A stretch of 64,000 bases of DNA from the NCBI GenBank assembly GCA_965153355.1, contig OZ231126.1:62001-126000 (forward strand). The letters are read 5' to 3'. A model generated the notes under the pieces. That model was given only the letters and a program-made list of their open reading frames with translations, was not told where the DNA came from and did not search any database. Shown here one piece after another: positions 1 through 64,000 of this stretch. The DNA comes from Flaccisagitta enflata (Eukaryota). Both the position numbers and the translations under genes were made by a program. Positions within the stretch are counted from its first letter, which is position 1, and each line of letters starts with the position of its first letter.

Positions 1-1
1 A

Positions 2-4723: not shown

Positions 4724-4821
<98 letters not shown>

Positions 4822-5106: not shown

Positions 5107-5138
<32 letters not shown>

Positions 5139-5363: not shown

Positions 5364-5377
5364 GTAAAACATTATGA

Positions 5378-5461
<84 letters not shown>

Positions 5462-5957: not shown

Positions 5958-6030
5958 ATGATGTCGACGAATGCAATGTCATCAATCATGGTTGCAACTA
6001 TGGCTGTGAAAATCTTCATGGCTCCTACAG
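5958..6030 (+). CDS. Multi-EGF protein exon (first half of cbEGF)
   Basis: acacag|AT; translates DDVDECNVINHGCNYGCENLHGSY; donor CAG|GTAGAG, phase 2. Confidence 0.9.
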
Positions 6031-6107
6031 GTAGAGAATGATGATGATGATGATGATGATGATGATAATGATGATGATGATTTTGATCTTGATGATGATG
6101 ATTAAGC

Positions 6108-6171
<64 letters not shown>

Positions 6172-6176
6172 GATCT

Positions 6177-6228
<52 letters not shown>

Positions 6229-6327
6229 AACTATTAAGAATTCAATCTTCTTGTCCACAGAGATGCAGATGCTCATTAGGACATAAATGATGGTCATATA
6301 AATGTAAATCTTTTTTTGTCTTAACAG

Positions 6328-6523
<196 letters not shown>

Positions 6524-6615
6524 TACATGGACAAAGACAAAGATTGAAAAACAGACACATAAACAGACTTTAATTTCATTTATTGTTTAATCTTCACCCC
6601 TCCCCCCCTCCTCAG

Positions 6616-6901
6616 CTATGTCGTCCCATCTGTCAAAATGGCGGTCGATGCATCACGGGCGTCTGTCGATGTCCTTTTGGGTGGACCGGAAGTTCCTGCA
6701 CGCGAGATGTCGACGAATGTGCGGCATTTAATCACGGATGCGTCCACGAATGCCGCAACTTTAGAGGAGGATTCACGTGCGTCTGCCCAAAAGGATCCGT
6801 GCTGCAACCGGATGGAAGATCCTGCGAAGTTATTCAGAATAATCCACCAGCTGATGATGATGCGTCGTCGTCGAGTTTACAGCAACAACAGCATCGTCTT
6901 C

Positions 6902-6935
<34 letters not shown>

Positions 6936-7543
6936 GTATCAACAGCATCAACCTTATCAACTTCAGCATCAAAAGCCTCAACAGCATTATGATCCACCAC
7001 AAAGACAGTATCGAGGTCATGCTGTATCATCCAAAGCCATTGACGTAGCATCACCATCATCTTCACCGCGCTTCTCGAGCGTCTTGTCAACATCTTCGAG
7101 GGTTGACGAAACTGTGCAGCCGCTTCATCCCTCACAACTGCGCCTGATTCATAATCACGAAGACAGACGGAAAAATATCATTCATCATCAGGATAAAGAT
7201 GAACAATTTGATGACAAATGGAGAAGTGGATCAAGGAAGAATAATCCAAGAGACGATGGTGATGGTGATGTTGTTGTCGGAGGACATCACTCTCATCATC
7301 AAGGACAGCGGCATCCACAGCATCATCAACAGCATCATCAACGACATCGTCAGCGGCGTCCTTACAGTCGGCTTCAACGGGAACATCACCAACGACCTTT
7401 GCAGGAGCAGCGCCATGGCGATACACTACTTCAACAGGAACATCACCAACGACCTCAGCAGGAGCAGCGTCATCGAGATACTCTTGTTGAATCAGATACT
7501 TGCCGATTTGATTACAACTGCAGACATGGAAAAAGATGCATAG
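6616..7543 (+). CDS. Multi-EGF protein exon (EGF + cbEGF, Q/H/R-rich spacer, start of next EGF)
   Basis: cctcag|CTA; LCRPICQNGGRC...DVDECAAFNHGC; donor TAG|GTTAGT, phase 1. Confidence 0.9.
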
Positions 7544-7943
7544 GTTAGTATGCTAGCATATTCAACTGAATAGATCTAATATAAAAGGAATTGCTATGAA
7601 ATATAGTGGTATGTCTGTTGTCTTCTCTGCTGACATGTGGTACATTTTGGTTCTGTATATAATTTTTTTAATAAGTTGTCTTTTACCCAACTTTTTTGTT
7701 TGTGTCCATATGTGTGTCATCTTATCATCTGCAAACATGCAACGCTCCAAGAGGCTTTATCCATCTGTCTCTTGATCTGTCCATTGGTCCATCTGTTAAC
7801 CATGCTGAAGTTGAAACCTGCATTCCTACCCCTCCCCCCCTCTCCCCCATCCACTGTGACATTATGACCCTGGTTAACTTGTCGTTTGCAAATGGCAAAT
7901 CTTGAATCTTTCTCATCGATTCATCTTTTTTTATATTTCACAG

Positions 7944-23372: not shown

Positions 23373-23684
23373 AGTGTAAGAAGAGATAGAGAGTGACGGG
23401 GACAGAGTGTTCCGGGCTGTAAGAGGGAAAAAAAATAACGACAAGCCATTTTTGGGACACGAAATTGCTAAAAGAAAAAAAAAAAGGAAAAAAAAGGAAA
23501 AAAAAAAAGGAAAGTAAAAGAAACCTTTTTCTCAATGGTTGAAAATTTTCGATGGTTTTTTTTTTGGGGTCTTTTTTCAAATTCGCATCCTTTCAGCTTT
23601 TTCAGCGAAATTTCTCTCTTTTGGCCTCAGATTTCAAACCAAATTTTGTCTCCTCGCCGAAGTCAAATAGATTTTTTGGATACT

Positions 23685-24145
23685 TACCCTCGGCTTACTC
23701 ATTTGTGTCAATTCACTTACCCCTGTGCTTACTCATTTGTGTCATTTCACTCACCCTGTGCTTACTCATTTGTGTCATTTCACTTGCCTTTGTGCTTGCT
23801 CATTTGTGCCATTTCATTTACCCCTGTGCTTACTCATTTATGTCATTTTACTTACCCCTGTGCTTACTAATTTGTGTCATTTCACCTACCCCTGTGCTTA
23901 CTCATCTATGCCCTTTTACTTACCACTTGGCCTTGTGCCATTTCATATACCCTGTTTTTACTTATTGGTGTCATTTCACTTACCCTATTCTTACTCATTT
24001 GAAAATCATTGGTGCTTACTCATTTGTGTCATGTGGCTTTCATTCGGTGCTTACTTATTTAATGCAATTTACTTACCCCTACTCATTTTTGTCATGTAAA
24101 CCTTAGCCTGTGCTGTGCTTAGTCATTTTTGTCCTATCACTCACC
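23685..24145. repeat. ~34-bp minisatellite
   Basis: TACCCCTGTGCTTACTCATTTGTGTCATTTCACT repeats. Confidence 0.85.
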
Positions 24146-31704: not shown

Positions 31705-32513
31705 TATTTTGTAAAAGGGAACACCTTATTAGTCTCACATCCTTCTCATTCCAATTCTACTCATCTCCCTTCTCTTCTTCTCAAAGTCTTTTACTTGGCT
31801 CCATACCACCGTTTCATCCTTCTCCTCTTCCTCTTCCTCCGCATACTCCTCCTCATCCACTACCGCCACAACTACCACCACCTATCCGTTCTATTCACTT
31901 CCTCGTCTTTCTTTTCCTCCTTCTCCCTCTTCTCAACCACCACCTTCTCCTCATCCACCACCACATCCACCGCCACCACCACATCCTCCTCTTACTCTTC
32001 CTCCTCCTCATCCTCCTCCTCATCCACCACCACCAAAACTACCACCACCTCTTCCTCCTCCTCCTCCACCACCACCACCACCACCACCACCACCACCACC
32101 ACCCTCTCCTCTTTCTTCTCCTCTTCCTCCTCTTCCTCCTCCTCCACGGACTGCCGGTGAATTGAACCTTGTCTTACTCCACCATCGCCACCGCTTCCTC
32201 CTCCTCTTCCTCCTCCTATTCCTCCTCCTCCTCTTCCTCCTCCTCCCTCTTCCTCCTCTTCCTCCTCCTCTTCCTCCTCTTCCTCTTCCTCCTCCTCTTC
32301 CTCCTCTTCCTCTTCCTCTTCCTCCTCTTCCTCCTCCTCTTCCTCCTCTTCCTCTTCTTCCTCTTCCTCCTCCTCTTCCTCCTCTTCCTCTTCCTCCTCT
32401 TCCTCTTCCTCCTCCTCTTCCTCCTCTTCCTCCTCTTCCTCCTCCTCTTCCCCACGGGCTGCCGGTGAATTGAACCTTGTCTTCGTCCCTTCCGTATCCA
32501 GGAATATATTTTC

Positions 32514-35059
<2,546 letters not shown>

Positions 35060-36677
35060 GTGAGGGGAGATTTATATGAACTAATAAACGAACGAAAGAA
35101 CGAATGAACGTTAATTTTCGACGATCATCGTCAAATTAGATATAGATAGTCATAGAAGTTGATTTGATTTGCGTACATAACACGGCTTACGGGCTTAGCT
35201 TAGTAAATAGTCATCGTAGTTTTTACCAAAGGTAGTTGGTCAATCTTCTTCTCAGTTTTCTCCTCTTTCTCCTTCTTAATTTCCCGCCTCTCCATCTCTT
35301 TCTTCTTCTGCCTCTATTTCTCCCCTTTTTCAGCCCTTTCCCTCCCTTTCCTTTCCTTCTCTTTCTTTCTCTTCCTCTTTTCCTGCCTCCTACTCCTCTT
35401 ATCTTATCCTTTCCTGAACCCATTCTACATGGAGAAAACAAGATTAAGTACTCGGCCACTATCAGTAGCAATACTGTGATCAACAGGTCTGAGTAGCATA
35501 GTATCTTTTTGAGTCGCTGGCTTGCGACTGAAAATCCGCTGATCTAGTCGCGAGTATGTTTATAAGAGTATCTTATAGTGTGAAAGTGCGCAGTAGCTGT
35601 AAACAATAATCCCCTTTTCTTCCCTGCCCTCTTTTTTTTTTCATTTTGCTTTCATTATTCATGCTTTACATAATATGTTTGTAAAGTACTGCCATGCCGA
35701 CTCTAAGGTTTGTAGAATCTAACAAGCATTTTATGAATAAATATGTATGGACTTCTAATAACCATGGAGGCTGATGCACTGATTCTGGAATAACGAAATC
35801 TACATCACCAACTAAAACCCAACTAAAACCTAACTAAAACCCAACTAAAACCCAACTAAAACCCAACTAATCCATCAACTAAACTGACTAATCATCAATT
35901 ACTGGTGTATTGTATTGGTGAAAACTAATTTTTTCACTAATTTTTGTAAATCACGTCAATTAAGTATTGCAACTGAAAAAGCTACTACAGAAATGGTTCC
36001 GACTCACAGGTACTAAAAACTCACGCCGATTGCGGCAGTGTAAAGAAACCGCATGATCAAGAATGTTAGTCATAGCTTTAAAGTAAGAAGTACGAAAACA
36101 ATTTTATTTTTAAAGAATAAAGCATCGTGATAGGCAATTTAGTGATTTCTTGATAGAATTTACCTAATGATGAGTAAAATCAGCATGATGATGTTTTTGA
36201 GATACGTAGGATCGAATAAATCATCTGGACGATTTGAAGCATGAGCTTGAACAATGACCATGAAGCATGAGTTTTAAGGTTGGTAGGCAAATAGTACTCC
36301 TCTGATCATGCTTTGAAAAAAAAACATGTTTCTAACTTTAAAAGTTGCTGTAAAATCCATTCTGTGACATGCGAATAAAAAAAAAACAAAAAAAAAAAAA
36401 AAAACAAATGACAAACCAAAAAAAAACAAAAAAAAATAGAGATGGCGTGTACATAGCCATGCACATTTAAGATATCTGTCCTTCCCGAAAAGATTACGAC
36501 AATCTTTATTTAAGTTTTTTTTGTTTTTTTTTCTTTTTTGTTTGTACTTTTCACCCAAATTCCCAAACGAGTTACTAGACGAATTTTCTTGGCACTTCTT
36601 TTCGGTATCTGTAAAAACCACCTTGTTAATCATCACTCATTCTTATCTAATCTATTACATTTCCATAAATCCAACAG

Positions 36678-36879
36678 CCCGACTGGTCTACCAAGCGCGT
36701 GTCAGCGCTGGATCAAATTCGGCAACCCCCCACCGACTTCGTGCACTCCCCCCTCGGACCCCCTGGGGTTGCCCCCCTCACCCCTCGAAAAATGGCTGAC
36801 GAAGGAAGTGTTCTACGACCTTTTCCCCAAAGCAAATCTCGGTCACGGACTCTCCCCCTGCGCGCCCTATTCTTACGAG
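36678..36879 (+). CDS. GH19 chitinase exon 2
   Basis: caacag|C; ...LTKEVFYDLFPKANLGHGLSPCAPYSYE, matching the GH19 N-terminal F..LF....YsYeaF pattern; donor GAG|GTGTGT. Confidence 0.88.
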
Positions 36880-36888
36880 GTGTGTATG

Positions 36889-37210
<322 letters not shown>

Positions 37211-37829
37211 TTTACAGTAATTTTAGTTATTACTTTTCCTTTAACACTGTCATCACTCATCAGTCATAACTTTTTAGTTTTTTTCAAACACCAGAAATAA
37301 CTTTGTCATCCTTCGTTCGCACTTTTATTTTTAGTCGCGGACACGCGACTCTACACCTTGCCGTGTCGGTCGGTCGGTAGGTCGGTCAGTCCGTCCGTCT
37401 GTCCGTCACATTTTTTTATTCTGAGCGGTTTTCGCATTACTGCTCCTGCCCAACCGTCCGCGACTGGATTTCCGTGTATCCGGCCTTGTTTTTTGCTCTC
37501 AAGTGACAGTTGGTCTTATTCATCCATCCATTCATTCATTCATTCATTCATTCATTCATTCATTCATTCATTCATTCATTCATTCATTTATTCATTCATT
37601 CATTCATTCATTCATTCATTCATTCATTCATTCATTCATTCATTCATTCCTAGATTCATTCATTCATTCATTTCTAGATTCATTCATCACTGATTTCTAG
37701 CATTAATCATCGCTGCTCGTTAAAGATATTTCTTTGGGTTTGAAGCAAATGATCCTGCTGAAAATCGTACATTCAGTCAGTGATTCATTCATTCATTCAT
37801 TCATTCATTCATCTACCATTCATTCACAG

Positions 37830-37976
37830 GCCTTTGTCATCGCTGCTCGCTACTTCCCTGGATTTGGCGGTCATTACGTCACAAAAGATCCGGCAGGAAA
37901 TCCTTTGCCTCAGACTTACTCCAGACAAGAAATTTGGCGCAGAGATGTGGCGGGATTCTTCGCTCACGCCATTCAA
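37830..37976 (+). CDS. GH19 chitinase exon 3
   Basis: tcacag|GCC; AFVIAARYFPGFG...RRDVAGFFAHAIQ; donor CAA|GTAAGG, phase 0. Confidence 0.9.
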
Positions 37977-38641
37977 GTAAGGCTGCTTATCATTCATTCA
38001 TATATTCTTTCATTCATTCATTCATTCATTCATTCATTCATTCTTCATTCATTCATTCATTCATCCATTCATCCATCCATTCATTCATTCATTCATTCAT
38101 TCATTCTTTCATTCATTCATGCGTTCATTCATTCATCCATCTATTCATTCATCTATTCATTCATTAACTCATTCATTCATTCATTCATTCATTCATTCAT
38201 TCATTCATTCATTCATTCATTCATTCATTCATTCATTCATTCAATCGTTCATTCACTCATTCATTCATTCATTCTTTACTCCCGTTATTCAAATAAAGCT
38301 GCATGACCTAAATTGTAAAATATATACATTATTTGTTTCTAAACTCATTCATTCATTTATCATTTCATTTAAGTATTCATCTTTTTTTATTCATTTATGT
38401 ATTATTTAATCTTTCTTTTTTTTTTGGTCTCTTAGTCATTTTTCTATCTATTCATCTATCTTTTCATTTTTATTCATTTCTTATTTATCTATTTGTTCAT
38501 TCATTCTTTCTTTTTTTCTTTCTTTCTTTTTTTCTTTCATTCTTTCTTTCTTTTTCTTTCTTTATCTTTCTTTCTTTCTTTCTTTCGTTCTCTTGTTTTC
38601 TTCCCATTCATGAAGAATCACATTCCATTAAATCCAAACAG

Positions 38642-38738
38642 GAAACTGGAGAGAACAATATCGATCTCTTAAAAACGCTTTCACCCGAAGTGGCTGAAGC
38701 TTGTTTCTATCGGGGAGGTTTCTTTAATTGGTTTGAAG
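38642..38738 (+). CDS. GH19 chitinase exon 4 (catalytic Glu)
   Basis: aaacag|GAA; splicing restores AHAIQETG (GH19 HETG/QETG motif); CFYRGGFFNWFE supplies the second Glu; donor AAG|GTTAGT. Confidence 0.9.
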
Positions 38739-38907
38739 GTTAGTGTTTATATCGGCGTGCCTGATCGCCAAATAGATGCGATTTGTACGAATGTGTGCAA
38801 TATGCAAATGAGTCAGTGTGTAGTGAGTAGTGAGTAGTGAGTGTCACTAAGTAGTGAGTACCGACCAAAAAAAAAGTTTATCATGTATAGAAAACTTAAC
38901 ATTAACA

Positions 38908-38976
<69 letters not shown>

Positions 38977-38981
38977 CTCAG

Positions 38982-39137
38982 GTGGGCCCGTATCCGCTTT
39001 CGTGGTGAACGGGGGTGCCACCCCTGAGGAAGGAGAATGGTGTATACCGGCTGGAAGATATTGTTCCACTGGAAATGTCCCCCATTTACATCCTTGCAAC
39101 GATGAAGAAATCAAACAACCCAACAACATAACCAAAG
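38982..39137 (+). CDS. GH19 chitinase exon 5
   Basis: ttctcag|GT; GGPVSAF...WCIPAGRYC...HPCNDEEIKQPNNITK; donor AAG|GTTAGT, phase 1. Confidence 0.85.
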
Positions 39138-39540
39138 GTTAGTTCCTTACCTTTGACTCAACATAACCAAGGGTAAGCAAAGTCCATCGGTAACGTTTGG
39201 AAAGAAACAAGTGGCTTTCATCTTTTGATTGAACGATTCTTTTCACACGATGGGTCACGGGTTACGGGTTACGGGTTACGGGTTACGGGTTACGGGTTAC
39301 GGGTTTCGGGTTTCGGGTTACGGGTGGGGCTCGTGTGAGAAAACACGCTAGAGCGGGGATAAAAACAAGTATAAAATGGCACTTCTTTGATGTTTAGAAC
39401 TCCTTCTATAGATATCATTTAACAGTTTAAAATCCCGAGCTCCATTTATGAGACAAGAGGGTTCGTCCAATAAATTTGTCCATCTGTCCATCAATTACAC
39501 CATTTCAAACATTAAATGACTTATCGGGAATTGTGCTTTC

Positions 39541-39646
39541 TCTCTGTTTCTCCCATCCAGGCTGTTACTTTTGTCGTGGTGCCATTCAGATATCATACAA
39601 CTACAATTACAGTCTCTCTCTCTCTCTCTGTTTCTCTCTCTCTCTC

Positions 39647-39720
<74 letters not shown>

Positions 39721-40343
39721 CCATCCAGGCTGTTACTTTGGTCGTGGTGCCATTCAGATATCATACAACTACAACTACAGTCTCTCTCTCTCTCCTTCTT
39801 CCATCCAGGCTGTTACTTTGGTCGTGGTGCCATTCAGATATCATACAACTACAACTACAGTCTCTCTCTCTCTCCTTCTTCCATCCAGGCTGTTACTTTG
39901 GACGTGGTGCCATTCAGATATCTTACAACTACAACTACAGTCTCTTTCTCTCTCTTCCTCCTTTCTAGGCTGTTACTTTGGTCGTGGTGCCATTCAGATA
40001 TCATACAAATACAACTACAATCTCTCTCTCTCTCTTCCTCCTTTCCAGGCTGTTACTTTGGTCGTGGTGCCATTCAGATATCATGCAAATACAACTGCAG
40101 TCTCTCTCTCTCTCTCTTCCTCCTTTCCAGGCTGTTACTTTGGTCGTGGTGCCATTCAGATATCATACAAATACAACTACAGTCTCTCTCTCACACTCTT
40201 TCTCCCATCCAGGCTGTTACTTCGGCCGTGGTGCCATTCAGATATCTTACAACTACAACTACAGTCTCTCTCTCACACTTTCTCCTCTCCAGGCTGTTAC
40301 TTCGGACGTGGTGCCATTCAGATATCATACAACTACAACTACG
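39541..40343 (+). repeat. Tandem array (9 copies, ~80 bp) of acceptor plus first ~51 nt of GH19 exon 6
   Basis: ag|GCTGTTACTT starts at 39561, 39729, 39809, 39889, 39969, 40049, 40131, 40213, 40293, separated by (CT)n. Confidence 0.95.
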
Positions 40344-40531
40344 GTCTTTTCGGTCGATGGCTTCAAAGTCGCGGAATCACTCACGAAGGCAAAACCATCG
40401 ATTTGCTCAAAAATCCAAATCTCATCATGACCAAGAAAGATCCTCCTTTGAGCATTTTGGCCTCTTTGTGGTTCTTTATGACTCCTCAACCGCCAAAACC
40501 CGCTATGCATGATATCCTCATTGGAAACTGG
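40293..40531 (+). CDS. GH19 chitinase exon 6
   Basis: GCYFGRGAIQISYNYNYG (GH19 YxGRGxIQLS/TxNYNY signature), LLKNPNLI, ASLWFFMTPQPPKPAMHD; donor TGG|GTGAGT. Start taken at the last of nine acceptor copies. Confidence 0.9.
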
Positions 40532-40595
40532 GTGAGTGGGGGGGGGGGGGAGGGACAATATGAAATCGTGACATTCTTGTTGATTATGTGGTAAA

Positions 40596-41612
<1,017 letters not shown>

Positions 41613-41657
41613 GTGGTAAATGGGAGGACAACATTCGTATAGCCAAAACATGACATT

Positions 41658-42633
41658 TAACTATGGCAAAATAAAAAAGCGAACGAATTTTGAGAGAGCA
41701 AAAACATAAGAAGATGTTGACCAATTTGCACAAGATTTACAGGGAATGATAACCATGATTTGGACTATGTCTGGTTAGAATTTCATCAAAATCCGTTGAA
41801 TACTTTAGTCGTTATCACGTTTTTACTGAAGTCACCTCTTTTTTTGACTGCCAGAGATGACATTTATCCTAAATCAAAATAATTCCATTTTTAGTAAAAT
41901 TAGCATTGTGCAAAAAGTTTTGGGAGTTTTGTTATGATTTTTGAACTGTATTCTGATGGTGCTATTTACTAATACTAGGCAAAATTCGCTTTCACTCAGA
42001 TAAAGTCTAGTGGGGTAGATATTGGTTGATTGTAAGCTTGCTCAGGATAAGAAATATTCAGCTACCTGTAAGAATATTTTTGCAATTTGGGAGACTAAAA
42101 ATGCTTCCATCTTCACAAAAATTTTACTGGAGATTACTCATATGTACAAAAGTTACCAGTTAAAACATTATGATAATCGGTAAAAAACTATGGCCATAGC
42201 ATTACTTTATAGTTCAGGTTTCATCTTCCTTAACTTCATTCTTAAACCCATAAAAAAAGTTTTGGAAAATTTGCTGTTTCTGCTAGAATAATCGGAGTCT
42301 CGTTATGAAATTTTTACCACAGCCTGTTAACAATGTGGTCTACTTCCACTTCAAATTTCATCAAAATCAGACTAGATTTAGTGCGGTTTTTCTAAATTTG
42401 TTTATTCATTCTTTGAAAATTCTAATGTGTGTAAGTTGAAGTTCTGATCATCGGACAAGCACTTTTTAAAAATCTATAATTCCTAAACTATTTAGAGCAG
42501 GACATCGATTTTTTCAGTGATGCTTAATAATACCAAAAAGTAACTCCAGTAAAAATTTCAGCATACTGGGTGAATTTTCAAAGGATTTATAAGCAAAAGA
42601 AGTAACTGTTCGCTTTTTTTTTTGCCATAGTTA
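41658..42633. mobile_element. Non-autonomous TIR element in GH19 intron 6
   Basis: TAACTATGGCAAAA..AAAAGCGAAC pairs with GTTCGCTTTT..TTTGCCATAGTTA. Confidence 0.75.
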
Positions 42634-42944
42634 GTTACCATTTGAGAATTTTTTGTGATGCTTTATGATTACAATATTAAAAATTCGGTCATAGAATTCA
42701 AGCTGTTTTCTGGAATAAACAATTATCTGTTAATCATTTATTAACCAGTAGCAAGACCAATGACAAGACTCGTTTTGGTGTTTTTTCCTCCATTTCTTAG
42801 ACAAGCTCTTACACTGCCTACACTTTACAACCACCACCATTAACATTACCATTAACATTACCATTACCATAACCATAAACATATTACCAATACCATCTCT
42901 TCATTAGTGAATTTTTCCTATGCATTGTGTTTAATGATATACAG

Positions 42945-43078
42945 GTGAGCCCAGACAAAGATTATGCTGGTTCCGTTTTGGGTCCAACTTCACTCGTTAT
43001 CAACAACGAATGTGGAGGAGAAGATGAAGACTTTGTTGGGGGACCTGGAGAGAGTAGAAGGATTAAGGCTTTCAAATG
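42945..43078 (+). CDS. GH19 chitinase exon 7
   Basis: atacag|GTG; VSPDKDYAGSVLGPTSLVINNECGGEDEDFVGGPGESRRIKAFKW (G.T..IN.EC motif); donor TG|GTTAGC, phase 2. Confidence 0.9.
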
Positions 43079-43099
43079 GTTAGCATGATGATTGAGATA

Positions 43100-43180
<81 letters not shown>

Positions 43181-43337
43181 TGTAGACTTTGTTGGGGGAC
43201 CTGGAGAAAGTAGAAGGATTAAAGCTTTCAAATGGTAAGTATGATGATGGTGGAGATGATGATGATGACTTTGTTGGGGGACCAGGAGAAAATAGAAGGA
43301 TTAAGGCCTTCAAATGGTAAGCATGATGATTATGATA

Positions 43338-43411
<74 letters not shown>

Positions 43412-43502
43412 GACTTCGGCGGAGATGATGATGATGAATTTGTTGGGGGACCAGGAGAAAGCAGAAGAATTAAGGCTTTTAAATGGTAAGCATGATGATT
43501 GA

Positions 43503-43563
<61 letters not shown>

Positions 43564-43727
43564 TGTAGACTTTGTTGGGGGACCTGGAGAAAGTAGAAGG
43601 ATTAAAGCTTTCAAATGGTAAGTATGATGATGGTGGAGATGATGATGATGACTTTGTTGGGGGACCAGGAGAAAGTAGAAGGATTAAGGCCTTCAAATGG
43701 TAAGCATGATGATTATGATGATGATGG

Positions 43728-43779
<52 letters not shown>

Positions 43780-43898
43780 GACTTTGTTGGAGGACCAGGA
43801 TACAGGCTTTTAGATGGTAAGCATGGTGGAGATGATGATGATGACTTTGTTGGGGGACCAGGAGAAAGTAGAAGGATAAAGGCTTTCAAATGATAAGC

Positions 43899-43932
<34 letters not shown>

Positions 43933-43986
43933 CTTTGTTGGGGGACCTGGAGAGAGTAGAAGGATAAGGGCTTTCAAATGGTAAGC

Positions 43987-44044
<58 letters not shown>

Positions 44045-44098
44045 CTTTGTTGGGGGACCAGGAGAAAGTAGAAGGATTAAGGCTTTCAAATGGTAAGC

Positions 44099-44135
<37 letters not shown>

Positions 44136-44189
44136 CTTTGTTGGGGGACCTGGAGAAAGCAGAAGGATTAAAGCTTTCAAATGATAAGC

Positions 44190-44250
<61 letters not shown>

Positions 44251-44380
44251 CTTTGTTGGGGGACCTGGAGAAAGCAGAAGGATTGAAGCTTTCAAATGGT
44301 AAGCATGATGATGATGATGATGACTTTGTTGGGGGACCTGGAGAAAGTAGAAGGATTAAAGCTTTCAAATGGTAAGAGTG
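43029..44380 (+). repeat. Tandem array (13 copies) of last ~50 nt of GH19 exon 7 plus donor
   Basis: GACTTTGTTGGGGGACC...TTCAAATG|GTAAG recurs with variable (GAT)n spacers. Confidence 0.95.
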
Positions 44381-44517
44381 ATAATGATAATGATGATGAT
44401 GATGATGTTGATTATGATGATAATGATAATGTTAATGACATTGACGGTGATGATGATGATGGTGATGTTTATGAGGATGATATTCAATGAAGATTACAAA
44501 ACGTTGCATTTTTCCAG

Positions 44518-44639
44518 GTTTTGCAATTATTTCGGGATTTCGGCGTTCAAAAGTGAAAAGGAAGAAAAAACTTTGACTTGCAAATATTTCAACGTAGATG
44601 ATTTCAGACAATTCAATGTGGATCCTGCGCTACTCGGAG
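44518..44639 (+). CDS. GH19 chitinase exon 8
   Basis: tttccag|G; WFCNYFGI...LTCKYF; donor GAG|GTTTGT phase 1 fits the last exon. Confidence 0.82.
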
Positions 44640-45366
44640 GTTTGTTAAACATGTTACATTTGTATTGTGAAATTGGGAGGTGCGTTAAACACGCGTCGTG
44701 TTACTCGGAAGTTCGTTAGACACGTATACTACGCGGATAAAAAAAAAAAGCCGCACCTTTATGTAGGTGAGTGAAAAAGGTTTTTTTGTCCAACTGATTT
44801 TGAAGATTTTTGAATTTTCTTTTATTCTAGACTAATCCCATGTCTGTATCTCAAACCGTTTAAAAGTTAGAGCTTGTCAAAGTGAACCTTTATTTTGGAA
44901 AAAAGCTCATTTTTTAATAGTAACTGAAAATGGCAATATTTTCACTCCTCTTTATGCCATTTCTAATCAAATAAAGCTAAAAATGCCATTTTTTTAAAAA
45001 TTCAATATGACAATTGATAAATTGTCATTTAAAAGTGCGGTTTTTTTTATTGATTCGCGTAGTATTGTGTGGCTTGCAAAGGCTTTATGAAAGCAGATGT
45101 GCAGTCATCAAATCTGGTTATACAGATTATTTCTACTCAAGTGTAAGCGATACCATAACCAGACATTTCGGTCTGTCGGTCAGTCTGTCTGTCAGTTGGT
45201 CTGATTTTCGGTCGATCTTTCGGTCTGCATCTTACTCTCTTGGGGCATACTGGGTCTTTGCGAGCAGTATCTTGCATCACTGCCCCTGCCCAATTACCAA
45301 ATTGGATACGTAATACACTGCCCACCTACACGCGCTTGCCTTTTTTTCTCTTTTCCGTAAACACAG

Positions 45367-45650
45367 GACGTGGTGAATACAAATCATGGGACTACGATTG
45401 GCGTTTCCCCAACGAATGTCGCTGCAACATGAAGACTTATCAAGGAGTCATTTTGGCCTTTGACCCCAAACTTCATCCTAGACTCAAAAACATCAACAAC
45501 CATCACAAAAGATGGTGTGAAAAAGCCCTACAGCAAGTTTATGTTTCCAAAGGAGAGAAATGCGGAGCGGTGCCTATTATGAAACCAGAGGACATGAAGA
45601 AAAGGACGGAAGAGGAAGGAGACGAAGAGGGGGAGGAAGAGGAGGAGTAA
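45367..45650 (+). CDS. GH19 chitinase exon 9 (C-terminal extension, acidic tail)
   Basis: acacag|GA; GRGEYKSWDYDWRFPNECRC...EEEGDEEGEEEEE stop. The nine exons total 3927 nt (1308 aa plus stop). Confidence 0.85.
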
Positions 45651-47049
45651 AAGGGAGAGGAGGAGAAGAAGGATGTGTAGATGTGTGAGGAGAAGTAAGA
45701 GAGGGAAGAAAAAGAAAAGAGGAAGAAAAAAAATAAGACCCGATGCCTACAAACAGCAACAAAACAAAACAAAACAAAACAAAACAAAACAAAACAAAAC
45801 AAAACAAAACAAAACAAAACAAAACAAAACAAAACAAAACAAAACAAAAAAACAAACATTATAGGTTGAATATAGAAGTTCCCTATAAGTCCATTGTAAC
45901 AATATTTTCCTCAATGATTCACAGGCAGTGCCTCTCTTTCCCTTAGTTTGTGCTTGCTTTTGCTGTTTGTTACATTATTCTGTTCTCTTCATTGATTTTT
46001 ACTTACTTTGCTGCGAGATAGCAAAGTAGGTTTTTGTTATATAGCTTTTAGACTGTTTAGCAATGAATTTACACATGTACTGAATAGCTTTCAATTGCTA
46101 GGCTTGTGAATGAAAAACGATAACTTAGTCATGCGAATTGCTTTAAACCAATTATTTCATCTCGTTCATTTAATGATTTGTCTTTCTCATTGTCTGTATT
46201 TTTGCTCAGCATTACGCTCAAGTTTCCTTTTGAATTAAAATCGAATATTCAAACTTTATGACTGGGGGGAAAAAGATGACATACGCCAGGTCTTAGAATT
46301 TGCAGTCAGTTTGAATTTGTTCGTGAAATTGCTAGAATCCTAACTATGGCAAACGTGTTTTTCAGTAGTTTACACCCAAGCAATGAGTAAAACAAAACAA
46401 AATCGGTGACTGTTTTGAAGCTCTGTGAAAGATCTTTCAAATGAGATCTTGCTGGTAGTTCTAGCTTTAGTCGTCTAGAAATGGCATTGGGATGAAGACA
46501 GGTTGTCAGGAATTGGAAAAGCCCGTCAAAGGATCTTCATGTTTGTAGTTTGTTGTAACATAAAAACTAAACGCTTTGAGTTAAAAATGCAATCTTGGCG
46601 CAATTTTAAAGAAAACTTGAATCTCTTTAATTTGCTCATGGATATCAATTCGCTCATGGATATCGCTCATGGATATCGCTCATGTATATCGCTCATGGAC
46701 ATCAATTCGCTCATGGATATCGCTCATGGATATCAATTCTGAGTTCCACTATGAACAAAAACGTTGAGACTAAAATTGATAGTTGGAAAAAAAGCCAAAA
46801 TTTGCATTTTTTTCAGAAAGTGATATTCTTCTTTAATATAATGCGATGCCATTTCTTAACGAAAAAAGCTACTGAGACCAGCAACGTCGCATTTGGAAGA
46901 TTTTTCGAAGATCTTTCAAATGGTCATAGATTTTCTATAGTTCAAGAAAGTCATAGTCATAGTCATAGTCATAGTCATAGTCATAGATTTTCTATAGTTC
47001 AAGAAAAACAAGTTGTTTGTTTTTTTCTTTGCCATAGTTAGACAAAATA

Positions 47050-51645: not shown

Positions 51646-52287
51646 GAGACGCTCGATCAGAAACAACGAAAGCGTGGCCTAAAACAAAAAACAAAAACAA
51701 AAAGCAATAACATAAAACGAAAACAAAACAAAACAAAACAACGGAAAACGATAACGTAAAATATGAACCGATTTGAAATAACGGAATGACATAAAATGAT
51801 TAAAAAAATGAAGAGGAGAGAAAGTGAAAATGAAATGGAAGAATAAAATGGAAGAATAAAAGGAGGAATTAAATAACCTAAAACTACAACTACAACTACA
51901 ACTTGTAGACAAACTTGGTGAGACTGTACACGTGTCTGGACAGTCGCGAGCAACAACTACATTCCCCTTTCTCATTCCCCCCCCCCAAAATAAGAAAACC
52001 CTCTCCAAAACAGATTCTTGCTGAGGAACTAAGAATGAAAGGCTTGAATTAGTGATCCCAGCATAAGTAGGAGGAAGGCAAAATTTGGTGACCCTTTTTA
52101 CAGATGGCGTTTTGCTAAAGAAAGAAAGAAAGAAAGAAAGAAAGGGGAAAAACATTGTGGTAACCACTCAAAAAGGAAGCCTTGTGTTTCTGTCTCTGTC
52201 TCTGTCTCTGTTTCTCTCTCTCTCTCTCTCTCTCGCTCTCTGATCAAGAGGCTCTATTCAAGTCGTTTTGTCACGCGCGACGGGGGC

Positions 52288-53530
52288 GGAAACAAACAGA
52301 CGCTGATTGTGGTAGTGGTCAGGATAGTGGTTGTAGTGGTTGTGACGGTGAAGGCGACGGCGGCGGAAACAAACAGACGCTGATTGTGGTAGTGGTCAGG
52401 ATAGTGGTTGTAGTGGTTGTGACGGTGAAGGCGACGGCGGCGGAAACAAACAGACGCTGATTGTGGTTGTGGTCAGGATAGTGGTTGCAGTGGTTGTGAC
52501 GGTGAAGGCGACGGCGGCGGAAACAAACAGACGCTAATTGTGGTAGTGGTCAGGATAGTGGTTGTAGTGGTTGTGACGGTGAAGGCGACGGCGGCGGAAA
52601 CAAACAGACGCTGATTGTGGTAGTGGTCAGGATAGTGGTTGTAGTGGTTGTGACGGTGAAGGCGACGGCGGCGGAAACAAACAGACGCTGATTGTGGTAG
52701 TGGTCAGGATAGTGGTTGTAGTGGTTGTGACGGTGAAGGCGACGGCGGCGGAAACAAACAGACGCTGATTGTGGTAGTGGTCAGGATAGTGGTTGTAGTG
52801 GTTGTGACGGTGAAGGCGACGGCGGCGGAAACAAACAGACGCTGATTGTGGTAGTGGTCAGGATAGTGGTTGTAGTGGTTGTGACGGTGAAGGCGACGGC
52901 GGCGGAAACAAACAGACGCTGATTGTGGTAGTGGTCAGGATAGTGGTTGTAGTGGTTGTGACGGTGAAGGCGACGGCGGCGGAAACAAACAGACGCTGAT
53001 TGTGGTAGTGGTCAGGATAGTGGTTGTAGTGGTTGTGACGGTGAAGGCGACGGCGGCGGAAACAAACAGACGCTGATTGTGGTAGTGGTCAGGATAGTGG
53101 TTGTAGTGGTTGTGACGGTGAAGGCGACGGCGGCGGAAACAAACAGACGCTGATTGTGGTAGTGGTCAGGATAGTGGTTGTAATGGTTGTGACGGTGAAT
53201 GAGACGGCGGCGGAAACAAGCAGACGCTGATTGTGGTAGTGGTCAGGATAGTGGTTGTAGTGGTTGTGACGGTGAAGGAGACAGCGGCGGAAACAAACAG
53301 ACGCTGATTGTGGTAGTGGTCAGGATAGTGGTTGTAGTGGTTGTGACGGTGAAGGAGACGGCGGCAGAAACAAATTGACGCTGATTGTGGTAGTGGTCAG
53401 GATAGTGGTTGTAGTGGTTGTGACGGTGAAGGAGACAGCGGCGGAAACAAACGTTGATTGTGGGATAGTAGAGGGAAGTGGTGGTGACGGTGACGGCGGC
53501 GGAAACAGAAGGAAGCAAACAGACGCTGAT
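52288..53530. repeat. 77-bp minisatellite, about 16 copies
   Basis: Unit GACGCTGATTGTGGTAGTGG...GGAAACAAACA at 52299, 52376 and onward; near-identical in the middle, decaying at the right end. Confidence 0.95.
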
Positions 53531-57788: not shown

Positions 57789-58310
57789 ATGGCTACATTG
57801 ATTGCACTAGCAATTTCGTTACTGCTTGTATCGGCATTGTTGTTACCATTGCCCTTAGCGTCTGTGTCGGCAACTGTGTCGGCATCAGCATCTGCGTCGA
57901 CAGCGGCATCGGCATCTGTACCGGCGTCGGCATCTGAACCGGCATCGGCGTCGGCGTCGGCATCTGTACCGGCATCGGCGTCGGCGTCGGCATCTGCACC
58001 GGCGTCGGCATCTGTACCGGCGTCGGCATCTGAACCGGCATCGGCGTCGGCGTCGGCATCTGTACCGGCGTCGGCATCTGAACCGGCATCGGCGTCGGCG
58101 TCGGCATCGGCGTCGGCGTCGGCATCTGTACCGGCGTCGGCATCTGTACCGGCGTCGGCATCTGTACCGGCGTCGGCATCTGTACCGGCGTCGGCGTCGT
58201 CTTATCCGGCGCCATTTTGGTATTCAGCTTCCAAATCAACGGCAACTCGACGACAAAATCATCTACGCGTCAAAAGGATGACAGAGTGGAGAGTTTTATC
58301 ATCGGGCACG
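57789..58310 (+). CDS. Secreted Pro/Ala/Ser-rich precursor of unknown family, exon 1
   Basis: aaaATGG context; signal peptide [36 protein letters not shown] repeats; RVKR; donor ACG|GTGAGT, phase 0. Confidence 0.75.
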
Positions 58311-58818
58311 GTGAGTGACAGGGTGGGTGACATGGTGAGTGACATGATGAGTGACATGGTAAGTGACATGGTGAGTGACATGAGGAGTGAAATGGTAAGT
58401 GACATGGTCACTTGGTGAGTGACGTGGTGAACGACATGATGAGTGACACGGTGGGTGACATGGTGACTTGGTGAGTGACATGGTGAGTGACAAGATGAGT
58501 GAGATGATGACTGACACTGTGAGTGACATGGTAAGTGACATGATGAGTGATACGGTGAGTGATATGGTGAGTGACATGAAGACTGACACAGTGACATGGT
58601 GAGTGATATGGTGAGTGACATGATGAGTGACGTGATGAGTGATATGGTGAGTGACATGATGAGTGACATGATGAGTGACATGATGAGAATTATGGTGAGT
58701 GACTTGATGAGGGATGTGGTGAATGACGTGGAGAGTGACATGAAGAGTGATGCGGTGAGTGACATGATGAGTGACACGGTGAGTGACATGATGAGTGACA
58801 CGGTGAGTGACTTGGTGG
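58311..58818 (+). repeat. 12-bp minisatellite GTGAGTGACATG starting exactly at a splice donor
   Basis: About 40 imperfect units read directly. Confidence 0.9.
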
Positions 58819-59329: not shown

Positions 59330-62300
59330 TGATTGTCAGCTTTATGAGCAAAGGACTGTAGTTAGCTGGTCGACTTTCGGATCTGTTGTTGGTGACTATC
59401 ACTGTCTATCTTTTTTCTCTTAGAAGGTGAACGCTTAATTAGACGGTTGTAAGGCGCATAATTGTAAAAGGATTTGTAATAAAATGAGATTACAATGAGA
59501 AAACGGATTTTTTCCAAAAGTAGTAGGTTTGATTGTTTAATCCAAAGAAAATAGCCCAATTCATGAGCCTTATGCGTCCTTGCTTTTACTTTAAAAAAAG
59601 AACGTCTTATTTGTAAGTCTTTCTTCTACGAAGACTAAATGTGAACTAACTAAAGGCAGAGAGTCTCGCTCTGCGCAGTTGTTTATCTCATAATTCATCT
59701 ATACATTCTCGTGACTCCCGGCTTTCTAGCCAATCATGCATGACTATTAAGAAATCATGTATCCAATAATAGCCTAACACGTCTTTAACAAAGGGTTACG
59801 CAAGTCTATGGAAAATTCCCAACTGAGGCAACTTAACACTGGCCCCAAAATTATTGTTTGCAATAATTTTCTAAATAGGTAGAAACCCACGTCAGAGTCG
59901 AAATATGAACACTATTCACAGTAAGCAGTGTTGCGTAGTCATCAGTCACAGCTCGACGTTGTATCTGGTTGTTGTCGTTGAGAATTTTAAACATTGTATC
60001 AATCTCTTGATCCAATGTGCTCGTTTTTGTCAGATGGTACCTCAAGGGGTACAATATGTTGTATCGGGCGCACAATTTCTTTTCCGTCGCAAATCACTTT
60101 CACGGTGCGAACAAGATTGTCACGTCCGACGACAGTTTCCAAAACTTTCGCAAGTGGCCAAGTGTGTCTCTTGGTATTCTCCTTCAGAAGAAGAACGATA
60201 TCTCCTTCCTTGATGTTGGGGCAGCGTGTCTGCCATTTTGTGCGAGACTGAAGCGAGGGCAGGTAGTGTTTCTGCCATTGTTTCCAAAATTGTTCCTTCG
60301 TCCTTTCCAGGTGTTGCAAGCGTCGCGTTGCGTCCAGTGGAACGTAAGGGATGTCAATTTTACCGAGCGGTCTTCCGTTGATCAGTTCGGCTGGTGTGAT
60401 TTGGCGTGTTTCGTCGCCCTTTAAGACAGTCAGGGGGCGAGAATTGATGACTCCTTCAATCTTGGTGAGGACGACTCTCAACTCCACCTCCTTCAACCTT
60501 GCTCCTCCAACAACCTTTCTCAGCGGGGCTTTGATGGAGCGAACCAAGCGTTCCCAAATGGCTCCATGCCAAGGGGCAAGTGGTGTGATGAATTCCCATT
60601 TTATGTGTGGGATTGCTTTCGATGCGGCCACAAACGATGTGCCATTATCGGAGTAGAGAACGGAAGGTGTTCCTCTCCTTGCCCTGAAGCACTCAAAGGC
60701 AAGAAGAAATTCTTTTGTATCCAGTGATTGTGTGAGTTCCAGGTGTACTGCACGTGTGACGCCGCATGTGAACAACAGAATGTATCTTTTTTGCGCGCCA
60801 GTTTTTGTGACATACAATGGACCAGCGTAGTCCATCCCGGTGTGCGTAAACGGTGGTGATGGAGTTGTTCTCCATTCTGCCAGGGGAGCCATTTGCTGCC
60901 CAGCCAATCTTGTGTTTGCTTTTTTGCAGGTGACACATGTTCTCAATTGAGACTTTACTTTGATGATCCAGTAATTTCGGCGCAATTCATTCAAAGTGTG
61001 AGATGCACCTGAGTGCAGGTTTTCATGATGGGTATGGGTGATCAAAAGTTTTGCCAAGTGTGACTCATGATGAAGAATGATCAATTCTGGTTCAGTTTGA
61101 ACTCTTCCTCTCATCATCATAATTCCATCCATCAGGATAGGGTTGAGTCCTTTCAACTTGCTGTCTTTGTGCAAAGCTCCTTGTTGCAAGTTGTGTATGT
61201 CTTTGTTGAAATGCTGTTTCTGATCCATCTTGATCAAATTTTGGAGGGCTACCTCTCTTTCATCTGCAGTGGGGGGACCTTCACTGGCCCCTGTTTTTCG
61301 GTTGATGAAGCGAAAAACATAAACCATGGTGTTCAGCAGCCGGTTGATGTTGCTGAATCTTTCCATCTTCACAATTGGTTCAACGTCATCAGTGACAGTG
61401 GGGATGATATTGACGGCGGTTTTCTTCAATTCACATTGTTCCTTTTTGTGGATTGGCTGATCTGGGTATTCACCCGACTTCAGAAACTCAGGGCCATGAA
61501 GCCAGAGTTCATTTTGTTTCTCAGACAGAGGCCAAATACCTCTTGAAGGTATGTCAGCTGGGTTTTGGGTCCCAGGTACCCACTTCCAATGATCATCACA
61601 GGTTGTGTGATTTTGTTTTGTGTTGTCTTGGATCAACTTGACCCTGTTTCCAACGAAGACTTTGTACTGTGATGCTTCAGTGTGAATCCAGTTCAAAACG
61701 ATGGTGGAATCGGTCCAGAAAGTGGTGGGCAGTGGGCCAAGGTATTTGGTTATGTATGTGTGCATGTTAGCGGCAAGGACCGCGCCTTGCAGTTCCAATC
61801 TTGGAATGGTGGTCTCTTTGATGCTTTTCACTCTTGTTTTGGCCATCATGAGGTGTACATTGACACTGGCCCCATTTTCATCTGGGCTTGTACCATAAGC
61901 TGCAGCTGCAAAACTTTCTTCACTTGCATCACAGAAGATGTCCACAGCTTTGATTTTTCCCCAAAACCTTTGGACAGTTGGGCTGATTTTGCTGGCTTCC
62001 TGCCACAAGTTGACATGTTTCATGACGTCATTTGGGATTTTGTCATCCCATCCAAGTTGCAATTGCCACAATGACTGCATGAGTATTTTTCCACGGCACG
62101 TCAACGGCGCCTTTAACCCCAATGGGTCGTAGATGCTTGCCAGCATAGCAAGAACATCTCTCTTTGTTTGACATTGTCTGTCAGTGACGGCTTTTGGAGC
62201 CAAAGTGTCATCACTGGTGTTCCATTCAATACCAAGGACTGAGGTATGGACCTTGTTTTCCAACAGTGAGGGATCCATTGCATCCAGAACGGCTTGGCAG

Positions 62301-64000
62301 TTGCTGTTGATTTTCTGTACTTTCATGCACATTCCATCGAAGAATTCAATCAATTCCTCCAGTAATTGAATGGCAACTTGTATCTCCCAGGTTCCAGTGA
62401 TGGTGTCATCAATGTAAAGCTGGTCTCTGACTGCTTTGACTGCCAGAAGGAACTTTCCCATCCTTTCCATCCTGTTTGCATGTTCAAGGATGGTTTCACC
62501 GGACAAGTAAGGTGATGATGCTTCTCCAAAGAGTAGTGTGCATTGTCTCATCAATTTTTCAAATGCAAAGAAATGATGCAAATCTTTCTGTTGATCAGGT
62601 ATGGTGATTCTAAAGAACATCTTGCTGATATCTGCAATCACAGCAATTGGGTTGTTTCTGAATTGTAACAGCAATCCAATAACCTCAGGGAGCAGGTTTG
62701 GGCCTGCATATTGGCATTTGTTTAAAGACAGGCCATTCTTGTCTTCTTTTGATGCATTCATCACATTTCTGATTGCGGTTGTAGATTGACCTTCTGTTAT
62801 GACAGAATGCCGAGGGAGGAAGTGTTTCTGTGTGTTTGGATCATCTTTCTCAGAAGTGACCTCTTCAATGATGCCTTGTCTTTCTTGATCATCAAAGACG
62901 GCTTTTACCTGCTCTTTCAGAGTAGGGTTTTTGTCCAATTTTTGCATCTGCTTTTGATGCAGGATTTTGGCGATCTTTTCATTATCACCCAGTTGTTTGA
63001 CAGTTTCCTTGTATGGAATTGTGGCTTGGTATTGTTTCTTGACATCATCATATATGATGTTCTGTTGAACTTCTTTCCTGAAGTCATTTTCTTCAACTTC
63101 ATGAACCATCGGTTCCTTGTGTGTATGTGTGCCTAAGCATTCAGCCTCATAGAACTGCTTGAGCTCTGATTCAATCCCTTTGAAGGGTCTTGTGGTGACC
63201 TTTTGGCAAGAGGTCCTTTTGCCCTCAAAGTTTGGGCAGGCTCCACACAAAATCCAACCGAAGATTGTTTGGACTCCTACAGGGGCTGTGATCTTGCCCT
63301 TTGCACGGGCTCCTGTTTTTATGGCTTCAGCATAGTCTGCGCCAATCAGTATTTCCACTTGCTCTTCTTCTCTTGGGAAGCAGTCGGCGAAGCGGATGTT
63401 TTTCAAGTGAGAAAATTCTTTTGTTGGGTCAAATGGAACGGCATCCATTTCAATACACAGTGGTCCATCCCGGACCAAAGCGTCCATGGTGAAATTGTTC
63501 CCTCTTGTGGTTTTCAAAGTGACCTTTGCCACAGAAAACTCTTTTGGGGGTTCAAGTGTTGCTGAGAAAGCCACAGCAACCGAAAATGTTTTCTTTCCAA
63601 CTATTGGAAGGTTCAATTCATCAACAACCTGTTGAGTGATCCAAGTGTTTTGTGACCCATCATCAAGCATCGCTCGGATGGGTCTTTTGGCTGTGTCTCC
63701 AACAGCAGTCGCTTTGAACGACTTCAGAATAGAGCTTCCATTGAAACCCTTCGTTGAGGCGTTGTTTGCCGTAGTTTTTGGACCGTCCTCACCTCGAGGG
63801 GTCTCTGTTTGTTTGGAAATTGGTTTTGGCTTCTCCTCATGGTGCAAAACTGTTGGGTGATCAGTGCTCTGGCACTTCCTGCAAGTTACTGATTCTTCAC
63901 ATTTTTCACCTTGATGACCCTTCCGGGCGCATTTGAAGCACAATCTGTTCTTCATCAGAAACTCAAATCTTTCTTTCTTCTGTTTCTTACCTAAGAAACT
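59330..64000 (-). mobile_element. BEL/Pao LTR retrotransposon with probable 3' LTR (59838 down to about 59330-59385)
   Basis: On the minus strand, a PPT-like TTTTGGGGCCAG is followed by TGTTAAG at 59838. The distal LTR end is uncertain because the 5' LTR is outside the window. Confidence 0.85.
59999..64000 (-). CDS. BEL/Pao gag-pol polyprotein (5' truncated by window)
   Basis: Zn knuckles (CFKC..H...C), protease LDDGS, RT ADISKMF/YIDD, RNase H FCDAS/IPRLEL/WTDS, integrase HHCC plus DYAGP/SDNG/WER; order PR-RT-RH-IN; frame stays open to the window edge. Confidence 0.97.
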   Translation of the reverse strand, partial: SFLGKKQKKERFEFLMKNRLCFKCARKGHQGEKCEESVTCRKCQSTDHPTVLHHEEKPKPISKQTETPRGEDGPKTTANNASTKGFNGSSILKSFKATAVGDTAKRPIRAMLDDGSQNTWITQQVVDELNLPIVGKKTFSVAVAFSATLEPPKEFSVAKVTLKTTRGNNFTMDALVRDGPLCIEMDAVPFDPTKEFSHLKNIRFADCFPREEEQVEILIGADYAEAIKTGARAKGKITAPVGVQTIFGWILCGACPNFEGKRTSCQKVTTRPFKGIESELKQFYEAECLGTHTHKEPMVHEVEENDFRKEVQQNIIYDDVKKQYQATIPYKETVKQLGDNEKIAKILHQKQMQKLDKNPTLKEQVKAVFDDQERQGIIEEVTSEKDDPNTQKHFLPRHSVITEGQSTTAIRNVMNASKEDKNGLSLNKCQYAGPNLLPEVIGLLLQFRNNPIAVIADISKMFFRITIPDQQKDLHHFFAFEKLMRQCTLLFGEASSPYLSGETILEHANRMERMGKFLLAVKAVRDQLYIDDTITGTWEIQVAIQLLEELIEFFDGMCMKVQKINSNCQAVLDAMDPSLLENKVHTSVLGIEWNTSDDTLAPKAVTDRQCQTKRDVLAMLASIYDPLGLKAPLTCRGKILMQSLWQLQLGWDDKIPNDVMKHVNLWQEASKISPTVQRFWGKIKAVDIFCDASEESFAAAAYGTSPDENGASVNVHLMMAKTRVKSIKETTIPRLELQGAVLAANMHTYITKYLGPLPTTFWTDSTIVLNWIHTEASQYKVFVGNRVKLIQDNTKQNHTTCDDHWKWVPGTQNPADIPSRGIWPLSEKQNELWLHGPEFLKSGEYPDQPIHKKEQCELKKTAVNIIPTVTDDVEPIVKMERFSNINRLLNTMVYVFRFINRKTGASEGPPTADEREVALQNLIKMDQKQHFNKDIHNLQQGALHKDSKLKGLNPILMDGIMMMRGRVQTEPELIILHHESHLAKLLITHTHHENLHSGASHTLNELRRNYWIIKVKSQLRTCVTCKKANTRLAGQQMAPLAEWRTTPSPPFTHTGMDYAGPLYVTKTGAQKRYILLFTCGVTRAVHLELTQSLDTKEFLLAFECFRARRGTPSVLYSDNGTSFVAASKAIPHIKWEFITPLAPWHGAIWERLVRSIKAPLRKVVGGARLKEVELRVVLTKIEGVINSRPLTVLKGDETRQITPAELINGRPLGKIDIPYVPLDATRRLQHLERTKEQFWKQWQKHYLPSLQSRTKWQTRCPNIKEGDIVLLLKENTKRHTWPLAKVLETVVGRDNLVRTVKVICDGKEIVRPIQHIVPLEVPSDKNEHIGSRD

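Follow-up and report, generated by a model that had tools for sequence, protein, structure and literature searches.

The closest described relatives of the repeats reported here are the mirages of amphioxus, minisatellite-like tandem duplications across an exon-intron boundary that have been reported for Adh3, the globin genes BflGb6 and BflGb9, troponin C, and PGBD5 (PMC3087553, PMC3902484). As these reports describe them, either a 5′ or a 3′ boundary is repeated, many units keep their AG or GT, and clusters of units undergo concerted evolution; copy number differs between haplotypes, and splicing is undisturbed as judged by RT-PCR (PMC3087553, PMC3902484). Mirages have been proposed as a route to new introns, and the same work calls the mechanism by which mirages themselves arise unclear (PMC3087553). 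Our literature search returned mirage reports from amphioxus only and none for cnidarians. A second well-studied case is IVS7 of human F7, where the first unit of a 37-bp minisatellite spans the exon 7 donor and five to nine donors share one acceptor (PMC1557585). According to the account given there of fifty constructs, the most upstream donor alone was used, pseudo-sites failed to compete even when their consensus value was raised to 91, only a perfect consensus shifted use, and then partly, and no masking RNA structure was found (PMC1557585). Related to both is Rogers' model, in which an intron is created by the tandem duplication of an AGGT-containing segment and for which cases have been put forward (PMC3265369, PMC4974935).

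The design that we describe below is already in print, and the two arrays that display it are members of this rare mirage or F7-type class of exon-boundary minisatellites. Each is a run of head-to-tail repeats that contain an exon edge, its splice signal, and the adjacent intron (13 units in array 1 and nine in array 2), and in each the unit at one end coincides with the authentic edge of a real exon, as placed by homology. Both were found in what we call the window, the whole stretch of 64,000 nucleotides (64 kb) that was analyzed.

The Host Gene

The arrays belong to a family 19 chitinase (GH19) gene, and the exons that matter for the argument are as follows, with a slash marking splice junctions here and throughout.

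36694..45647, + strand: GH19 gene (chitinase class I-like), eight exons supported by homology
40293..40531, + strand: exon 6, the GH19 core, with donor TGG/GTGAGT
42945-43078, + strand: exon 7, VSPDKDY...RIKAFK plus the TG of a W codon
44503..44517, + strand: acceptor and polypyrimidine tract of the intron between exons 7 and 8, gcatttttccag
44518-44639, + strand: exon 8, the G of the W codon and then FCNYFGISAFK...; 3′ end tentative

Family membership comes from exon 6 alone, which matches Pfam PF00182 over 40292-40531 with E = 2.3e-17 and 64 bits (curated cutoff, 25.5), and from 129 homologues at E ≤ 0.001. The best named relatives of this exon are proteins of Hydra, Rhopilema, and Clytia at 78-81% identity, followed by those of nematodes, and by the similarity of this one protein the host gene looks cnidarian-like. 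When Hydra and Rhopilema proteins were used in tblastn, the eight exons aligned without a stop to residues 19-434 of a homologue 441 residues long; the signal-peptide exon of the gene was not located. The boundaries on which the arrays depend agree with the homologues. Exon 6 starts as ...TKG/GCYFGRG, in agreement with the alignment. Exon 7 ends in GCT TTC AAA TG/GTTAGC and exon 8 starts with G TTT TGC AAT, which together read RIKAFKW/FCNYFG as in the homologues, and this junction, with its W split TG/G, was placed by alignment to cnidarian GH19 proteins. A minus-strand gene was considered and rejected, as the locus offers there only reading frames with His, Ser, and Ile runs that derive from microsatellites.

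Two neighbors of the gene were recorded as well. Just upstream on the + strand, an open frame of 864 codons (32469-35063) is made up of little other than poly-Q, poly-N, and Ser-rich runs and turns hydrophobic for a stretch toward its end, and a Pfam search of this frame returned no match. Farther upstream, at 1-7545 on the + strand, lie the exons of a protein with calcium-binding EGF and cEGF repeats.

Repeated Donors behind Exon 7

The first-pass annotation had read the intron between exons 7 and 8 as holding most of a set of 13 copies of an exon end with its donor, and reexamination of the locus bears this out.

43029..44380, + strand: array 1, exon end (51 nt) with donor and (ATG)n spacer in 13 copies; unit lengths 73-169 nt
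43079..43084, + strand: productive donor GTTAGC in the context ATG/GTTAGC; the G of GT is 43079 and the last exon base is 43078
43185-43567 versus 43568-43950, + strand: higher-order duplication, three units per block, 88.8% identity over 366 columns

The first copy is the real end of exon 7, and the other 12 lie inside the intron; the GAC codons that open the copies start at 43029, 43185, 43267, 43436, 43568, 43650, 43780, 43843, 43931, 44043, 44134, 44249, and 44322. All copies are full length (12/13; 51 nt, DFVGGPGESRRIKAFKW) except that at 43780-43822, which is shortened by an internal deletion of about 14 nt, and the (ATG)n tracts that separate them all differ in length. The donor at 43079 is the sole one joined to the unique part of exon 7. 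Ten of the intronic copies carry GTAAG, at precisely the positions first assigned to them (43235, 43317, 43486, 43618, 43700, 43817, 43981, 44093, 44299, and 44372), and the two copies said to have lost their GT indeed read ATAAG, at 43893 and 44184, so that the forms found among the decoys are GTAAGC, GTAAGT, GTAAGA, and ATAAGC. On the + strand of the window, 10 of the 20 occurrences of GGTAAG fall within the 1.35 kb of this array. The estimate that the array makes up about 90% of the intron also holds (1302 of the 1439 nt in 43079-44517), and read-through from exon 7 does meet a stop as claimed (TGG TTA GCA TGA), which means that use of any distal donor leads to a premature stop.

The history of the array was thought to include a 383-bp higher-order duplication and several rounds of expansion, and both can be recognized: TRF reports a period of 383 with 2.6 copies and a score of 1130. 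Beyond the 383-bp block, units 2 and 5 have identical cores and units 3 and 6 are one base apart, further signs of tandem-repeat turnover. A different gene model in which a distal donor is used productively was tried and rejected on three observations. The left edge of the unit inside exon 7 offers no GT, the only AGs that precede decoy units are the TAGs at 43184 and 43567, and every unit of the array closes with TGG-TAA or TGA-TAA.

Donor Strength and Position

The claim of the first-pass annotation that the decoys fit canonical U1 better than the productive site is upheld by two measures. Compared with CAG/GTAAGT, the productive donor has 5/9 matches and the decoys with GT have 6-7/9, and the productive donor pairs with the canonical U1 5′ motif at a duplex energy of -4.1 kcal/mol, the decoys at -8.0 to -8.6 kcal/mol. 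As ATG/GTAAGC or ATG/GTAAGT, the decoys in turn fall short of a perfect consensus. An Rfam search of the window gave 0 matches and hence no U1 gene to set beside the canonical one. Predicted local RNA accessibility lends no support to a structural masking of the decoys, with values of 0.012 for the productive donor and 0.17-0.22 for decoys 2, 5, and 13.

The other donors of the gene put the productive site in context. They read GAG/GTGTGT, CAA/GTAAGG, AAG/GTTAGT, AAG/GTTAGT, TGG/GTGAGT, and, tentatively, GAG/GTTTGT, so that GTTAG serves three of seven introns, including AAG/GTTAGT at 38739 and 39138. All three occurrences of GGTTAGT on the + strand of the window end coding reading frames: those at 38739 and 39138 are the homology-supported GH19 donors, and that at 7543 closes an EGF-domain frame. 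A T at +3 may thus be ordinary, and GTTAGT a regular donor form, in this organism. With GTTAG at three of seven introns, the productive site is perhaps less odd than it seems, and the paradox of its weakness is softened; the exon 7 donor is the poorest of the three GTTAG donors in the gene. The first-pass annotation proposed that proximity must override donor strength, which is the published rule for F7, the one system tested. By analogy with F7, we infer that position overrides donor strength here, which would carry the rule from mammalian cells over to a distant animal.

Repeated Acceptors before Exon 6

A second array, unseen in the first-pass annotation, has the mirror-image design of the first.

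39545..40292, + strand: array 2, same GH19 gene; unit of (TC)n tract, YAG acceptor, and ~50 nt from the start of exon 6 (GCYFGRGAIQISYNYNY), present nine times

Its YAG sites lie at 39558, 39726, 39806, 39886, 39966 (TAG), 40046, 40128, 40210, and 40290, with a repeat period of 80-82 nt (TRF period 80, 8 copies, score 1025). Exon 6 continues only from the last copy, and 40290 is the productive acceptor. Among the eight decoy acceptors, four keep the frame and allow an open reading across the array that would add 54-244 residues, and the other four shift the frame.

Proposed Origin and Tolerance of the Arrays

We favor, with moderate confidence, the reading that array 1 is a mirage minisatellite that was seeded by a microsatellite and is tolerated because the exon-proximal site wins. 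The pure microsatellite between units hints at the mode of origin. The units of both arrays lie between two similar tracts: microsatellite on their intron side and, about 50 nt into the exon, a short stretch that resembles it. The left flank of the array 1 decoys, GATGATGAT-GAC, mirrors the exon's GAAGATGAA-GAC (GAT GAT GAT GAC in the spacers and GAA GAT GAA GAC in the exon), and the array 2 decoys end in TAC-AGTCTCTC where the exon counterpart is TAC-GGTCTTTTC. The starting point would have been an (ATG)n-like tract in the intron directly after the donor, together with its look-alike GAA GAT GAA GAC roughly 50 nt upstream in the exon, and, as the two tracts are short direct repeats of each other, slippage or unequal exchange between them would have duplicated the exon end and donor. 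Once microsatellite flanked every unit, unequal exchange could occur in any register, which would yield variable spacers and the 383-bp block. Array 2 may have originated likewise, from the acceptor's (TC)n polypyrimidine tract and the TC-rich GGTCTTTTC about 50 nt inside exon 6.

As for the effect of the arrays, the analogy suggests that productive splicing uses only the sites attached to the body of an exon, the first of the donors and the last of the acceptors. The exon-proximal site might be committed first because synthesis proceeds from 5′ to 3′ and because sites pair across the short exon. Any transcript that used a distal donor would keep the TGA three codons beyond the exon and would be lost. 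The array would then be no device but a tolerated by-product of a highly repeat-prone genome. The window has about 40% G+C and is dense in micro- and minisatellites, for which TRF returns 44 rows at a score of at least 250 in its 64 kb.

Other repetitive features of the window were recorded in their own right. A highly homogeneous minisatellite occupies 52277-53452 (77-nt unit, 15.3 copies, 97% matches, score 2240). On the minus strand, 60002-64000 is a BEL/Pao-type retrotransposon with an open frame of 1333 codons that runs past the window end (Peptidase_A17, integrase zinc domain, DUF5641), and a 1707-residue protein in the sequence collection is 97% identical to this frame. Also on the minus strand, a 34-nt minisatellite at 23682-24001 has about 10 units with two donor-like motifs per unit (ATGAGTAAGC and GGGGTAAGTGAA); it contains 12 GTAAG, including five GGTAAGT, and no adjacent exon was identified. 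On the + strand, about 43 units of the 12-mer GGTGAGTGACAT fill 58300-58817 right behind ...ATCGGGCACG/GTGAGT, with 18 occurrences of GGTRAGT. This repeat may be a third boundary repeat, of short unit, after the first exon of a signal-peptide and Ser-Ala-rich frame that starts near 57790, a candidate gene model.

Besides the distance of this host from the mammals in whose cells the F7 rule was established, two points count against tolerance of a neutral by-product as the whole account. Canonical U1 pairing is stronger for ten decoys than for the productive donor, which accessibility does not help either, and a neutral by-product gives no account of why variants avoid codon positions 1 and 2.

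A Codon-Position Pattern among Silent Copies

The second of these points deserves closer attention, as the silent copies of the exon edges have kept the appearance of coding sequence. In array 1, an identical peptide is encoded by seven of the 12 copies of full length despite their nucleotide differences. The idea that variants would respect the reading frame arose from the array 1 data, and array 2 was examined later as a replicate. Codon position 3 holds 10 of the 13 variants in array 1 (P = 0.0016) and six of the nine in array 2 (P = 0.042), or 16/22 combined (P = 1.8e-4), and the variants are synonymous in 8/13 and 5/9 cases, respectively, for a combined 13/22 where a fraction of 0.19-0.26 is expected. 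Codon positions 1 and 2 have three variants in 34 nt in array 1 and three in 32 nt in array 2, and the noncoding flanks are rich in them (four in 8 nt and seven in 12 nt, respectively). Synonymous changes outnumber nonsynonymous ones by 9:2 among variants in at least two copies, and the ratio is 4:7 among singletons (Fisher P = 0.08). A calculated model in which copies are spawned from a selected exon and then decay limits synonymous changes to about 36% of variants and position 3 to about 45% of them; the observed 59% synonymous lies weakly above this limit (P = 0.023), and the observed share at position 3 exceeds its limit as well (P = 0.008).

One explanation that would account for this pattern is that the silent copies often swap with the expressed exon end. 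Unequal crossover or conversion would put a downstream copy into the productive slot, changed copies would be purged, and the array would amount to a germline store of usable exon ends. Exchange with the expressed copy fits the pattern, because amino acid changes would be purged once a copy is promoted, and the length instability described for mirages, as reported in PMC3087553, is in keeping with it. However, only 22 variants are available for an idea that was formed after array 1 had been inspected, and some of the multicopy variants are one event duplicated by the 383-bp block. TGA/ATAAG persists in two copies, a change of N to K is common to three copies of array 2, and the T at +3 that is private to the productive donor speaks against a very recent exchange at its 3′ end. 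The same pattern could also come from conversion by unseen paralogous GH19 genes. We therefore regard frequent exchange as an unlikely explanation, and return to tolerance of a mirage minisatellite as the preferred one.

Expression and Independent Sequence

The stronger pairing of the decoys raises the question of what they might cost. A sizeable share of transcripts could use distal donors or upstream acceptors and be destroyed or yield faulty protein, which would lower the output of the gene, either as a tolerated load or as a crude form of down-regulation. The ten decoys that pair better with canonical U1, the three predicted to be more accessible, the TGA that follows three codons in from any distal donor and upstream of two more introns, and the division of the array 2 decoy acceptors into in-frame and frameshifting halves are all compatible with such a cost. 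So is the outcome of mapping four runs, out of five RNA runs with small word shares and one raw-read run, to 41300-45700, which gave zero depth on exons 7, 8, and 9 from runs that may not contain this organism. The pseudo-sites of the F7 and amphioxus precedents are silent, however, and the coding sequence of the GH19 gene is intact and conserved, so that we consider a substantial cost improbable.

Two further observations were made with transcript data. In a raw-read run, 253 reads fell on the ATG repeat only, with loose ends that run into unrelated sequence, and these ends indicate that the reads come from another transcript. Marine metatranscriptome contigs from three runs match 41600-42600 and 44700-45100, which are intronic or intergenic, at 95-99% in many short pieces, with the exons alongside free of depth, and these matches are probably dispersed repeats common to related plankton.

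The lack of RNA coverage on exons 7-9 in the four runs could equally be cited for a decaying gene, a chitinase copy that is no longer needed and in which the arrays and the weak donor reflect relaxed constraint. The productive donor with its five of nine consensus matches, the diverged C-terminal tail of low complexity, and the signal-peptide exon that was not found would all suit this view. Against it, eight exons run without stop or frameshift over residues 19-434 of the 441-residue homologue, the core exon is 70-80% identical to its homologue, and GTTAG donors serve other introns of the same gene, which together make decay very unlikely. Misassembly, whether of the copy number or of the entire array, is hardly credible: a metagenome scan with the array 1 unit gave 0 matches, but the copies are 0-4 substitutions apart with all spacer lengths different and one copy shortened, the higher-order block has diverged to 88.8% identity, and 3 kb upstream the gene has another array that is built alike but unrelated. 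A search for the orthologous intron returned 13 related metagenome loci (46-80% identity), none of them an orthologue; 11 of these loci are contigs, 1.0-1.9 kb in length, that resemble intron-less transcripts.

Implications

The arrays are a natural experiment on splice-site choice outside mammals, with one weak donor ahead of ten stronger copies in the same context and, in the same gene, one acceptor behind eight copies that are nearly identical to it. Should splicing of the gene prove correct, the exon-proximal rule of human F7 would extend to acceptors and to an animal far removed from mammals. The presence of two mirages, with a possible third, in one 64-kb window suggests that such repeats may be common in repeat-rich invertebrate genomes, where gene prediction would be misled by them. 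If the codon-position signature is valid over many arrays, it would mean that selection acts on unexpressed copies through recombination. Should the silent copies indeed exchange with the expressed exon end, selection on the protein would reach into the intron as a second-order selection on copies that are not expressed, and the persistence of the array despite up to ten stronger decoy donors would be explained.

Comparison with Known Systems

Relative to the amphioxus mirages, both boundary types occur here in one gene, and pure microsatellite, (ATG)n or (TC)n, stands between the units. The host is a GH19 gene that is nearest to cnidarian proteins, not a cephalochordate one. Correct splicing and length polymorphism have been shown for amphioxus, whereas the present arrays are known from their sequence alone. 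The bias in codon position among copies seen here is not mentioned in the accessible text of the amphioxus reports.

The resemblance to F7 lies in an authentic donor that is followed by several donor copies that share one acceptor. The pseudo-sites of F7, as the available account has it, are identical to the authentic site, whereas here 10 of the 12 copies are nearer to the consensus than the authentic GTTAGC. The units of F7 are contiguous and 37 bp long, whereas those of array 1 measure 73-169 bp with variable spacers, and the five to nine sites there compare with 13 here.

The arrays share with Rogers' model a tandemly duplicated coding sequence that gives extra splice signals, so that the duplicate can be removed as an intron. 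They differ in that no new intron is made; two existing introns are lengthened. As for how such repeats begin, Haber and Louis are said to have proposed in 1998 that minisatellites are born by slippage between short flanking direct repeats. The present arrays fit that scheme in that short direct repeats on either side of a unique segment would precede the first duplication, and they depart from it in the nature of those repeats, one an intronic microsatellite and the other a tract in the exon that resembles it.
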